Shown piece after piece: positions 29,885 through 43,332 of a stretch of 64,000 bases of DNA. This stretch comes from a virus. Taxonomy: Duplodnaviria; Caudoviricetes. The DNA lies in IMG/VR virus record IMGVR_UViG_2881966637_000002, positions 31,846 through 95,845 of that record; one strand, 5' to 3'. A model generated the notes under the pieces. The model made no database searches. It was not told the origin of the DNA and worked only from the letters and a program-made list of their open reading frames with translations. The position numbers and the translations under genes were made by a program. Positions within the stretch are counted from its first letter, which is position 1; every line of letters starts with the position of its first letter.

Positions 29885-30182
29885 CTTTTCCGTAGCTTAC
29901 ATATTGCTTGTTGACCTGATATTCTCCCTTCCCTTTTTTCAGCAGCAGGCCGTTTTTTACCAGATTTTTCATGTAGTTAAACTGGCTCGCTTCTTTAAGC
30001 CCGTATAACTGCTCAACGGCCAGCCGCTTTTGCTTCGTGTTGGTCCATAAACCATCGGTCCGGTTCATGGTAGCGAGGATATAACCAAATAGCTTGGCTT
30101 CGCCAATATGATCGCATTTTGTGATCCACGAACAAGTTCCTTCCAGGATGTTCATCTTTAGCCAGTATCGTATTTTGTGCAT
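29862..30182 (-). CDS. RepL-like winged-helix protein
   Basis: YMKNLVKNGLLLKKGKGEYQVNKQYV C-terminus. Confidence 0.6.
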   Translation of the reverse strand: MHKIRYWLKMNILEGTCSWITKCDHIGEAKLFGYILATMNRTDGLWTNTKQKRLAVEQLYGLKEASQFNYMKNLVKNGLLLKKGKGEYQVNKQYVSYGKDEQTHPK

Positions 30183-30273
30183 TGTGCTGCACGATTATGC
30201 TCCACAAATATAGAGTAATCATCTAAAAAAACATATTAATACAATATATTTTTAGATAATAAGGCGAGAAATA

Positions 30274-30335
30274 GCAAACTATGTTAGAGTATTACTCTAC
30301 ACTATTTTAGACTTTTTGGCAAACTATGTTAGAGT
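30274..30335 (+). repeat. 17-bp direct repeats (iteron or operator-like) upstream of the RepL-like gene
   Basis: GCAAACTATGTTAGAGT at 30274-30290 and 30319-30335; further TAGAGT cores at 30211 and inverted at 30294. Confidence 0.8.
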
Positions 30336-30628
30336 GGAATGTTGCTATATCAGGCAGTTAGCTCATTTTGGCCCATGCCCCGAACCCTATATATCGCCTA
30401 TCTGTAACGTTTCATTTATACATGCCGCTTACGCGGACCTGCTACCCCAGTAGCTGCCCGTTTTTTGGCCGATTTACACAATTATCTTCCCGGTCTGGTG
30501 CTGGGACTACCACCACGCCCGGCCCCACACGCGGCCCCGTTTTGTCTACCCCCCCCTACCTAGTGGTGCGTGCATGGGTAAGGAATCCCTTATAAAAAAT
30601 GGTATGCTGTGCGTACACTGTCTTTTTT

Positions 30629-30994
30629 TTATGAGGTGGTGAGGATCGATACAGGCAGGAACGCACGAGGGCTAAGCCAATAGGTATGGGGTCTGGGTCC
30701 ATAGGCTACCAGCTCAGCGTATAGCAGTGATTTGATAGCAGTGGACAGGTCAGCGGGTTTCCCTCCTACGTGGTCGCGCATCTGCTTGCGTGTGAGTGTT
30801 GATAGTTTGGTGTCGGGGTCCAGTTTGGCAGCGAGTAAATACAGCATACGTAAACCGGACGCTGGCAACTGTAGTATTTTGGTCAGTGTATAATCGTCAG
30901 GCTGGTATATGGTTGCTAACCTGGTTTCTGACCCAGTGCCGAAAGGGTTCTTTTTAGAAAGTGAATATCCGTCAACATATCTCATGTTAGTCAC
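30629..30994 (-). CDS. Second RepL-like/winged-helix protein
   Basis: GLRMLYLL...LSTAIKSLLYAELVA...TYWLSPRAF. Confidence 0.55.
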   Translation of the reverse strand: MTNMRYVDGYSLSKKNPFGTGSETRLATIYQPDDYTLTKILQLPASGLRMLYLLAAKLDPDTKLSTLTRKQMRDHVGGKPADLSTAIKSLLYAELVAYGPRPHTYWLSPRAFLPVSILTTS

Positions 30995-31470: not shown

Positions 31471-31914
31471 TTAGACCAGCGCAACCATTGGGCGACTATC
31501 CTTTTTCATTTGCTCAATGTGTTCTGCCTTGTTTGCTTCATACCTCAACATAAGGGCAGGAAGTACAGATTTTGGCTGCAACCTCAGAAATAGACGATTG
31601 TACAATTCAAACCCAGCCTGTTTAAACTTATGCATCCAAATAGCTTCATAGTACTTCAGCGTCTCCGGGTTGCACTCTTGAAGCATGGTGCATGTAAAAG
31701 ATTCCTGTCCGTGCGTGTGGTAGTCACTTAGCATAAGATCAGAGAACAGTAACCCGCTTTTAGCCTGTGCCATGTGTGTGTAGAAGCGGTTCGACACGCA
31801 AGACGACGACCCAACATAAATACGCATAGTGCTTTTGCAGGTAAGCAGGTAAACCCCACAATCGGAAGGGTCTTGCAGGTAACTAGTGTAACCAGGATGA
31901 TAAGTGCCGTACAT
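31471..31914 (-). CDS. GIY-YIG family endonuclease
   Basis: GVYLLTCKSTMRIYVGSS...RF..H...E...YN. Confidence 0.85.
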   Translation of the reverse strand: MYGTYHPGYTSYLQDPSDCGVYLLTCKSTMRIYVGSSSCVSNRFYTHMAQAKSGLLFSDLMLSDYHTHGQESFTCTMLQECNPETLKYYEAIWMHKFKQAGFELYNRLFLRLQPKSVLPALMLRYEANKAEHIEQMKKDSRPMVALV

Positions 31915-31950
31915 GGTTTTAATAAGTTATTTATAATAAAACGCTATATA

Positions 31951-31984
31951 CACTTGCAGGGTTCAATTGAATTAAGTACTTTAG
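31951..31984 (+). promoter_or_regulatory. Putative promoter/operator for the small HTH gene
   Basis: CACTTGCAggGTTCAATTG followed by a TACTTTAG -7-like box; same element at 32236. Confidence 0.5.
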
Positions 31985-31988
31985 TACT

Positions 31989-32192
31989 ATGAAACCAATA
32001 ACACCCTACCAATATGCCAAGCTTTGCGGAGTCTCAGCGCAGGCCATAAACCAGCGTATTCTACGAGGTACGCTACCCGTGATAAAGCACGAGAACCCGG
32101 ACGGTTCAGTAAGCAACTATATAGATGCAGACGCGCACCCACCGGTAAAATTTGACAAGGGCAGAAAAAAAGTTGACCACCAAATCAACTGA
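31989..32192 (+). CDS. Small HTH DNA-binding protein
   Basis: TPYQYAKLCGVSAQAINQRILRG. Confidence 0.75.
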   Translation: MKPITPYQYAKLCGVSAQAINQRILRGTLPVIKHENPDGSVSNYIDADAHPPVKFDKGRKKVDHQIN

Positions 32193-32235
32193 CATTCAGC
32201 AACTTATAAAATATGTAAAAATATTTTATAACAAA

Positions 32236-32270
32236 CACTTGCATAGTTCAATTGTATATACGTACCTTTG
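32236..32270 (+). promoter_or_regulatory. Promoter of the early plus-strand operon
   Basis: TTG (32239)-21 nt-TACCTTTG (32263-70), Bacteroidota consensus. Confidence 0.75.
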
Positions 32271-32510: not shown

Positions 32511-32614
32511 TGAACAACGAGTTGCAACGCATAAAGCGACAATCAGAACAGGTATTGAAACTCGTCAGCATTCTAGTTATCACCCTGTTTATTTTGTGTC
32601 TGTTAACATGTTAA
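32510..32614 (+). CDS. Small membrane peptide (34 aa)
   Basis: TAATG coupling; MNNELQRIKRQSEQVLKLVSILVITLFILCLLTC. Confidence 0.55.
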   Translation: MNNELQRIKRQSEQVLKLVSILVITLFILCLLTC

Positions 32615-32646
32615 AAACCATATTTAAACCTTAAACAATTACCACT

Positions 32647-32721
32647 ATGTCCGGCTTCATTTTTTTCTGCATTTTCATTAGTTCGCTTCTTGCTGTCGCT
32701 TCAAACGGTAAGAAAAACTAA
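32647..32721 (+). CDS. Small hydrophobic peptide (24 aa)
   Basis: MSGFIFFCIFISSLLAVASNGKKN with A/C-rich leader. Confidence 0.45.
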   Translation: MSGFIFFCIFISSLLAVASNGKKN

Positions 32722-32785
32722 CCTGTTTTTTAGTCCTCACAGCGATCAAGTCAAAAACCTTATTAAAACCTTAAACTTTGCAATT

Positions 32786-33181
32786 ATGAACACAGCACCC
32801 ATGTATAAATTAGTTGCCGCGCTACATCTGACAGACGAGCAGATTAAAGCCTACGAAGAACTCCCAGACAACGGACCAAAAACCAAGCTAACCGCTGCAC
32901 AAACCCAATTTATATCGCGCCTTTATTACGATAAAGTCGAAGTGAACGGTTTCCGCATGGGATGGGGTAAGGAGCTTTACGAAGTGGAGAAAAAAGAAGG
33001 TTGGCCCAGTGGCGGACGCGTCAGCGATGCTCAGGCAAAGCGCATGGTTTTAAACGCAGTTATCCACCTCAACAAGCGGAAAGAACTAACCGCTGAACAG
33101 GCTGCAATCGAATTTAAAGATGCGTTAGAATTGCGCCCAACGTGGCAGTATATATACGCAAAAGCTTATGAACGTGTGTAG
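32786..33181 (+). CDS. Hypothetical early protein
   Basis: ATG at 32786 after the AAAAACCTTATTAAAACC leader. Confidence 0.7.
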   Translation: MNTAPMYKLVAALHLTDEQIKAYEELPDNGPKTKLTAAQTQFISRLYYDKVEVNGFRMGWGKELYEVEKKEGWPSGGRVSDAQAKRMVLNAVIHLNKRKELTAEQAAIEFKDALELRPTWQYIYAKAYERV

Positions 33182-33240
33182 CCGAAACGCCTACGGGCGT
33201 CTGCTTCAACTAGCTATTGAAGTACTGATGATGGCAAGCT
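33181..33240 (+). ncRNA. Hammerhead ribozyme, type II
   Basis: GCC GAAA CGCC-TACG-GGCG TC TGCTTCAA-CTAGCTA-TTGAAGTA CTGATGA T GGC AAGCT: intact core, three stems, GUC cleavage triplet (cut after 33201), loop I AGCT complementary to 3' AGCT. Confidence 0.92.
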
Positions 33241-33266
33241 AAAAACCTTATTAAAACTATATAGCC

Positions 33267-33569
33267 ATGAAAACCATAATCGCACAAGTTCGGGTACGCA
33301 AACAAGACAGAAACGGCAACACATACCACGACGTTTCTTTAATCGACGTAGACACAGAAAAACAAATAGCTGACGTAGTGAAGCGATACGGCTACGGCGA
33401 CCAGTACAAAACAACAACCTGTGAGCTGATAAAAAAGACACTGCCGGAAATAGCTGAAGCGGTCAAGCCATTTGAAACTGATCCCAAGACGTTAGACAAT
33501 TGGCGGGTAGAAAGTGAGGTTAAACAGGCCGGCATCCTTAAAATTATCTACATAGTCAATCACTTCTAA
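33267..33569 (+). CDS. Hypothetical early protein
   Basis: DRNGNTYH...YGYGDQY motif; conserved leader. Confidence 0.7.
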   Translation: MKTIIAQVRVRKQDRNGNTYHDVSLIDVDTEKQIADVVKRYGYGDQYKTTTCELIKKTLPEIAEAVKPFETDPKTLDNWRVESEVKQAGILKIIYIVNHF

Positions 33570-33668
33570 CAAAGTTGGGCCTCGGCCCTACTCTAACGCG
33601 CCAACGGTCATTCCTCAGTGTGACGAGCAAAAAGCGGAAGGGGACAACCAAAAAACCTTATAAAAACC

Positions 33669-33899
33669 ATGAAACGCAATTTCACCCGCACAGTTACCGC
33701 TGTAACCAGCATACAGCAAAATTACCCCAACTTAATCAAATCGGTTAGCTGGATCGCCAGCATTACCCCTACCCAGGCCGCGCTGGTCATTTGGGCCACT
33801 AAGAACGGGATCAGTGCGCCCATCGGTTCAGATCGGGTCAAGCTGTTCGGGGATAACCGGACATTGGTTTCTCAGGCCGTCAGATACCGGAATGCATGA
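33669..33899 (+). CDS. Hypothetical early protein
   Basis: Conserved leader AAAAACCTTATAAAAACCATG. Confidence 0.7.
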   Translation: MKRNFTRTVTAVTSIQQNYPNLIKSVSWIASITPTQAALVIWATKNGISAPIGSDRVKLFGDNRTLVSQAVRYRNA

Positions 33900-38182: not shown

Positions 38183-38280
38183 GCGTGAGCTCAAAACGAA
38201 CGACATACTTTTTGCACACTGCTGACAACTAGCTATAGTTGTTTTCTGGCCACGAGGCCAACCCCAATCAATACCCGATA

Positions 38281-38312
38281 GCCCTGTTACGTGCCACGTG
38301 ACGGGGCTTTTT
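38281..38312 (+). terminator. Intrinsic terminator of the early operon
   Basis: GCCCTGTTACGT-GCC-ACGTGACGGGGC followed by TTTTT. Confidence 0.75.
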
Positions 38313-43302: not shown

Positions 43303-43332
43303 TTTACCCATTTAAAAAACCTTATTAAAACC

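Follow-up and report, generated by a model that had tools for sequence, protein, structure and literature searches.

The spacer between two small plus-strand genes of a phage, P0001 (131 aa; 32786-33181) and P0002 (100 aa; 33267-33569), raises two questions: is the sequence lying there, which an earlier note had read as a type II hammerhead ribozyme, a genuine member of that family, and what would its self-cleavage do to the message in which it is embedded? Here, 'the window' denotes the whole stretch of 64,000 nucleotides that was analysed, that is, G000:C1:119950-183949 of a 7.4-Mb genome (56% G+C), and positions are those of the window unless indicated otherwise. The segment 33181-33241 on the plus strand is a complete type II hammerhead, and we consider it highly probable that it represents a pseudoknot-stabilised type II hammerhead which cuts the early-operon RNA of a temperate Spirosoma crAss-like prophage. 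The hammerhead between P0001 and P0002 is thus genuine, and it is an ordinary example of a kind common in phages.

Read along the plus strand, the elements follow one another in the order stem II 5' strand, GAAA, stem III hairpin, cleavage site, stem I hairpin, CUGAUGA and stem II 3' strand, and the topology is that of type II, with stems I and III capped by loops and stem II open. The stem II 5' strand GCC (positions 11.3-11.1; 33181-33183) pairs with the 3' strand GGC (10.1-10.3; 33233-33235); it shares its G33181 with the TAG stop codon of P0001 (33179-33181), which overlaps the 5' end of the ribozyme exactly as the earlier note had it, and it is preceded by A33180, an A that is conserved in the family. 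The core residues G12, A13 and A14 (GAA; 33184-33186) are read directly from the strand and fit both covariance models described below. They are followed by the 5-bp stem III hairpin ACGCC-UACG-GGCGU (33187-33200), composed of the A15.1-U16.1 pair and four G-C pairs and identical in sequence to the Rfam and the phage consensus. Hammerhead numbering places the predicted cleavage site between C17 and U1.1, i.e. at 33201/33202 as previously claimed, and C33201 is in accord with the requirement for a base other than G at position 17. Stem I (33202-33224) is an 8-bp hairpin, UGCUUCAA/UUGAAGUA, with strands 33202-09 and 33217-24 and a 7-nt loop CUAGCUA. Then come the second core segment C3-A9, CUGAUGA (33225-33231), and an extra U between A9 and G10.1 (33232), both direct reads; the extra U is a detail that was missing from the earlier claim.

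Beyond stem II, the single base A33236 leads to the 3' tail AGCUA (33237-33241), the partner of UAGCU in loop I (33211-33215). The loop-tail pairing, previously put forward as AGCU/AGCU, is present and can be extended to five contiguous Watson-Crick pairs in the same register as the family consensus; the pseudoknot starts one base after stem II. All pairs adjacent to the core are intact (U33202-A33224, G33233-C33183 and A33187-U33200; stem lengths 8, 3 and 5 bp for stems I, II and III), and folding of 33178-33250 yields exactly the three-stem hammerhead as the structure of minimum energy. The complete core, stem III with its UACG loop, the 8-bp stem I and the 3-bp stem II were all found where they had first been placed, and every structural feature tested as well as two covariance models support the assignment to type II. 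The extent requires correction: the ribozyme does adjoin the downstream leader motif, but it ends at 33240/41, and the end at 33260 given earlier includes the leader.

The check with Infernal against the Rfam family Hammerhead_II (RF02276), which the earlier note had proposed, gave a divided result. RF02276 is the top Rfam match in the window and aligns end to end, with an E-value of 5e-5 for the local stretch and of 0.013 for the whole window (both strands, 4227 families), but its score of 32.1 bits is below the curated gathering cut-off of 37, a shortfall of 5 bits which is due to an A/U-rich stem I, short loops and two inserted bases in the alignment. We also built a covariance model of our own, which was seeded with the window sequence and one viral sequence and rebuilt from 113 viral matches only. 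In this training set, 98% of the cells are paired and compensatory changes occur in 14 of the 16 pairs. The resulting model of 113 phage type II hammerheads assigns the window copy, which is near letter-perfect to its consensus, 69.3 bits (E 5e-17), a score that is partly circular because the window sequence seeded the model and the set was fished with its core and stem III. Features not fixed by the fishing pattern fit as well, namely the pairing of stem I, stem II, the extra U, the flanking A's and the register of the tail.

For a chance resemblance in an intergenic spacer to be considered, one can point to the fold energy, for which dinucleotide shuffling gives a z-score of only -1.28. The Rfam E-value for the window argues against chance, as does the outcome of a search with a lax descriptor (GAAA, an A-U-closed stem III hairpin, non-G at position 17, a stem I hairpin, CUGAUGA, 0-1 base, stem II) over both strands of the 7.4-Mb genome (14.7 Mb): it returned four matches, compared with two in the reversed control, and among them the window site alone has long stems and the pseudoknot, making it the sole strong candidate in 14.7 Mb, with nothing comparable elsewhere in the genome or in the reversed control. 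Moreover, the pseudoknot register, the conserved flanking A's and the stop-to-start position each match the family independently, and we regard an origin by chance as exceedingly improbable. No orthologous locus that could reveal covariation was found: P0001 is an orphan, and the region has no DNA relative in phages or in 100 related genomes. No other ribozyme was found in the window, either with Rfam at E-values up to 5 or with our own model. The gap 33570-33668 was considered as a twister-like candidate and dismissed, since Rfam at E up to 10 returns one unrelated sRNA (E 7.8) and the fold has a z-score of -0.66.

More weight is due to the possibility that we are dealing with an inactive relic, or with a purely structural look-alike of a hammerhead without a useful cutting rate. 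Such a reading could draw on the Rfam score under the cut-off, on the extra base next to the core together with the short stem II, on the element being missing from most related prophages, and on competing pairings in a long context. As to the last, in a context of 260 nt the minimum-energy fold keeps stems I and III but swaps stem II for other pairings, among them a 7-bp pairing of GGCUGCA (33100-06, inside P0001) with UGUAGCC (33177-83, comprising the stop codon and the stem II 5' strand). Unless opened by ribosomes, this pairing would be in competition with stem II, and the thermodynamic predictions for the long context ignore both the pseudoknot and translating ribosomes. On the other side, the core bases are all unmutated, the pseudoknot and all helices are intact, and there is no mismatch adjacent to the core. 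A loop I-tail pseudoknot is typical of type II hammerheads and needed for fast cleavage (Perreault et al. 2011, PMC3088659), and given the pseudoknot, hammerheads with a stem II of only 1-2 bp are still active (PMC3088659). The extra U is a common natural variant and compatible with activity (PMC3705267): an additional base after A9 is tolerated, and according to the passage in PMC3705267 citing De la Pena and Flores (2001), a U at this place raised the rate of the CChMVd hammerhead 3-4 fold. An inserted unpaired base, likewise compatible with catalysis, is found at this position in the CChMVd (+) hammerhead (PMC3705267) and in hammerheads of Penelope-like elements, which retain a base between A9 and G10.1 (PMC4209133). 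Unlike ours, these ribozymes are of type III or type I and come from a viroid and from eukaryotic retroelements, and the natural extra base of CChMVd is A, as compared with U in the window copy. Taken with the intact core, these precedents make a relic very unlikely in our judgement.

Comparison with other phage hammerheads shows how closely the window copy follows the habits of its family. A pattern comprising the core and this stem III led to more than 118 viral contigs (loci L008-L125), on which the descriptor identified 162 distinct type II hammerheads among the matches listed. Among these listed matches, the same extra U after A9 is present in 40 of 162, GCC/GGC is the commonest stem II of those that have it, just as in the window copy, and position 17 is C in 160 of 162. 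The genomic setting recurs as well: among the matches listed, 150 of 160 viral hammerheads have the end of an open frame of 40 codons or more no further than 40 nt upstream of G12, and the upstream stop ends 3-4 nt before G12, that is, inside or against stem II, in 77 of 160 and at most 8 nt before it in 121 of 160 (3 nt in the window copy). With the upstream stop so near G12, the conserved A or AG at the 5' end of the ribozyme is often part of the stop codon. Downstream, again among the matches listed, the first ATG after stem II follows at a median distance of 21.5 nt, compared with 31 nt here, and a Shine-Dalgarno-like site with a start codon lies within 80 nt in 141 of 162. Since the succession of stop, ribozyme and next start is common across viral hammerheads, it constitutes the norm of the family and not a peculiarity of this locus. 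Several viral contigs (L009, L062 and L101) carry 4-9 consecutive hammerheads.

Type II hammerheads between prophage genes have been described since 2011 (PMC3088659), and the window copy shares with RF02276 and with the type II examples of Perreault et al. the core, the open stem II, the capped stems I and III, the shortness of stem II and the sequence of stem III. It has in common with the latter also the loop I-tail pseudoknot of at least 4 bp just after stem II, and the sense-strand position between genes of a prophage operon (PMC3088659). Two differences stand out: the window copy is single, whereas the hammerheads of Perreault et al. were described in tandem sets, and it resides in a crAss-like prophage of a Bacteroidota host, where it is followed by a leader that is not of the Shine-Dalgarno type. 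Prophage transcripts of ~2 kb were fully processed in vitro by type II hammerheads (PMC3088659), and cleavage by type II hammerheads in vivo was reported for Desulfovibrio (PMC8782182).

What, then, would cleavage do at this locus? The ribozyme sits in a plus-strand block of ~20 small genes, for which a candidate early-operon promoter of Bacteroidota type, matching the consensus (TTG, 21 nt, TACCTTTG), is found at 32239-32270 and a strong intrinsic terminator (13-bp stem, then TTTTT) at 38280-38308, both on the plus strand. Two promoter-like stretches, 31941-31990 and 32230-32270, share ACACTTGCA...GTTCAATTG and end in boxes of the type TA..TTTG; the former precedes a 67-aa Cox-like HTH gene (31989-32192), the latter the early operon. 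A gene resembling GIY-YIG-type homing endonucleases (31471-31914, minus strand; phrog_314, E 2e-9) is placed between the structural and the early modules, and one of the leader-motif copies is located at its start. As to the two genes flanking the ribozyme, a search of 5.8 billion proteins found no relative of P0001, which matches nothing in Pfam or PHROG either; P0002 is assigned to phrog_6246 (E 3e-7), with viral hypothetical proteins as its nearest Atlas clusters. No DNA relative of 32600-33700 was found in phages or in 100 related genomes, and the hammerhead is absent from four viral contigs with relatives of P0002.

On this layout, we envisage the following course of events. A single long transcript of the operon would run from ~32270 to the terminator at 38308, and the ribozyme, once made, would fold locally into its two hairpins, the 3-bp stem II and the 5-bp loop-tail pseudoknot. 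A self-cut after C33201 would then split the early message. The upstream piece would hold four small genes ending with P0001, whose stop codon stays intact, and would finish in a tail of ~20 nt with the terminal G-C-rich UACG stem III hairpin and C17 bearing a 2',3'-cyclic phosphate. The downstream piece would begin at a base-paired 5'-OH U33202 within the 8-bp stem I hairpin and continue with an unpaired A/U-rich leader up to the P0002 start codon. The predicted geometry of the product ends follows directly from the type II topology, and the hairpin-protected 5'-OH end anticipated for the downstream cistrons is in line with it. Since only the 3-bp stem II and the 5-bp pseudoknot would hold the two products together, they should part readily, after which the two halves of the operon may decay and be translated independently. 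Both genes would have to be co-transcribed, the RNA cleaved and stability or translation affected; we infer, in short, that the polycistronic early mRNA is processed into hairpin-capped pieces. That the cut tunes stability or translation, as the earlier note had suggested, is plausible, and an uncoupling of decay and translation is the role proposed for prophage hammerheads (PMC3088659). A precedent for the making of an mRNA 5' end is offered by HHphage of the haloviruses HF1/HF2, where a mapped 5' end within three nucleotides of the cleavage site suggests that the cut generates it (PMC3088659); HHphage differs from the present case in that it is a structural variant of the hammerhead, belongs to an archaeal virus and requires high salt.

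The leader itself, AAAAACCTTATTAAAAC (17 nt; 33241-33257, plus strand), starts where the ribozyme ends and is followed by nine bases and the P0002 ATG at 33267. It occurs 16 times in the window at up to 3 mismatches, compared with 0.19 copies expected, with the copies spanning 13142-58341 on both strands (e.g. 32753-32769, 33241-33257 and 43315-43331). At up to 2 mismatches, 10 of 12 copies in the entire genome lie inside the prophage. Among 400 genomes of the family, none shows a cluster of the motif, which rules out a family-wide motif. Most copies end 1 nt before an ATG, the spacing ranging from 1 to 17 nt. The sole metagenome match to the ribozyme end plus leader proved to be a chance match in unrelated A/T-rich DNA.

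The abutment of ribozyme and leader invites the thought that cleavage mainly switches on the translation of P0002, by bringing the leader near a free 5' end or by freeing it from upstream ribosomes or structure; in a host without Shine-Dalgarno pairing, ribozyme and leader would then make up a portable expression cassette. The ribozyme does abut the leader exactly, and all three exact leaders of a second Spirosoma prophage, described below, likewise have a hammerhead directly upstream; furthermore, self-cleaving ribozymes in the 5'-UTR enable initiation in some fungal and plant RNA viruses (PMC13725137). However, ~15 other copies of AAAAACCTTATTAAAAC in the prophage are without a ribozyme, as are the variant leaders of the second prophage, and the leader is predicted to be unpaired both before and after the cut. 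For 141 of 162 phage relatives among the matches listed, the same layout is also followed by ordinary Shine-Dalgarno sites, and since this concerns most of them, it is not tied to hosts lacking Shine-Dalgarno sites. A masking of the start region by the ribozyme was considered and rejected, the only alternative pairing being AUGGC/GCCAU, which is 5 bp long and statistically unsupported. Hence, a main role in switching on P0002 appears unlikely to us, and it is rather improbable that self-cleavage is required to activate downstream translation, with hammerhead and private leader forming a portable cassette in Spirosoma crAss-like phages. If true, such a cassette would be a bacterial counterpart of the ribozyme-dependent initiation in fungal and plant RNA viruses (PMC13725137).

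The leader might instead be a phage-specific promoter, with the ribozyme acting as a 3'-end maker or insulator that trims upstream read-through. A private repeated motif in each related prophage would indeed fit a phage-specific factor better than the host ribosome, and there is no intrinsic terminator between P0001 and P0002. Yet the motif is mostly 1 nt from the ATG, too close to accommodate a normal start site and leader; its spacing to the ATG is variable (1-17 nt), and by eye it is unlike both the Bacteroidota -7 box TAnnTTTG and the sigma-70 -35/-10 hexamers. With these features weighed, a promoter at this place has very little probability. The more specific proposal that the leader serves as a promoter for the crAss virion RNA polymerase was found unsupported, the phi14:2 paper having found no common motif upstream of early transcripts. 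An insulating use of hammerheads is familiar from RiboJ-type synthetic insulators, in which a self-cleaving hammerhead upstream of the ribosome-binding site removes the upstream context and leaves a 5' hairpin; RiboJ was engineered from a plant satellite RNA and is not a natural phage element. We thus retain the processing of the early message into two hairpin-capped pieces as the preferred reading.

The identity of the host element bears on how general this arrangement may be. Judged by its genes, it is a temperate crAss-like prophage of Spirosoma. A muzzle protein of crAss type is encoded in the window (Pfam crAss_MUZ, E 9e-53), with distant relatives in Cellulophaga phage phi14:2 and in crAss phage cr128_1; the window also contains an ORF exceeding 2655 aa and genes for a repressor-like protein, a Sak4-like annealing protein, DnaB and DNA methylases. 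The prophage context is deduced from the muzzle protein, the repressor-like protein, DnaB and the methylases, and the host is taken to be Spirosoma because a same-genus relative is Spirosoma telluris. Of 400 other genomes of the family, nine contain integrated crAss-like prophages that are recognisable by a related muzzle gene (29-52% identity; L159-L169), and temperate crAss-like phages appear to be recurrent in the family. The same genome contains a second, more distant crAss-like prophage (G000:C21:404610-407783).

We searched the early-gene side of the nine related prophages with our own model, covering 40 kb for eight of them and 13 kb, up to the contig end, for one. Over these stretches of up to 40 kb, seven of the nine showed no hammerhead, and the only related prophage found to have any is that of G045, a genome of the same genus. 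Nor was a hammerhead found in phi14:2 or cr128_1, so that the notion of hammerheads as a general crAss-like trait is ruled out; the related prophages without it show that the hammerhead is dispensable for this phage group. Across 54 Spirosoma genomes, considering the best 95 candidates of each with our own model, hammerheads occur in only two prophages.

The G045 prophage carries three tandem hammerheads on the minus strand (L183 7721-7636, 7249-7164 and 6809-6740; G045:C25 ~29984-30965), which score 43.5, 41.5 and 30.1 bits on our own model and of which Rfam returns none at E 0.5. As in the window prophage, they are on the strand opposite to the muzzle gene and 12-13 kb away from it, so that the two prophages agree in phage group, host genus, orientation of the early region and approximate muzzle distance. 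Each of the three is preceded by a stop codon and followed by a repeated leader private to that prophage, AAACCACTATCGCAATG, just before an ATG; all three exact copies of AAACCACTATCGCAATG have a hammerhead directly upstream, whereas variant leaders have none. The ribozymes themselves are of a different lineage, with a long stem III, a different stem I and no extra U, and they are three copies flanking single small genes, as compared with one in the window prophage. In two of the three, stem III has changed in a compensatory manner; core position 7, which is variable, is C in one of the three copies. In the third, stem II comprises only ~1 bp.

As a single instance, the window hammerhead matters little: it is a standard member, in the usual context, of a family that was described in 2011 (PMC3088659) and is represented in Rfam. 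A full-text literature search found no paper pairing hammerheads with crAss-like phages. Because the Rfam cut-off misses this copy and the three copies of the sister prophage go unreported, hammerheads of Bacteroidota phages are probably under-counted. The overlapping stop codon and the start codon within ~20-30 nt fit a precise cut-point between cistrons, with both products keeping a terminal hairpin. The two Spirosoma crAss-like prophages, each with hammerheads beside a private leader, provide a simple system for testing the effect of the cut on expression.
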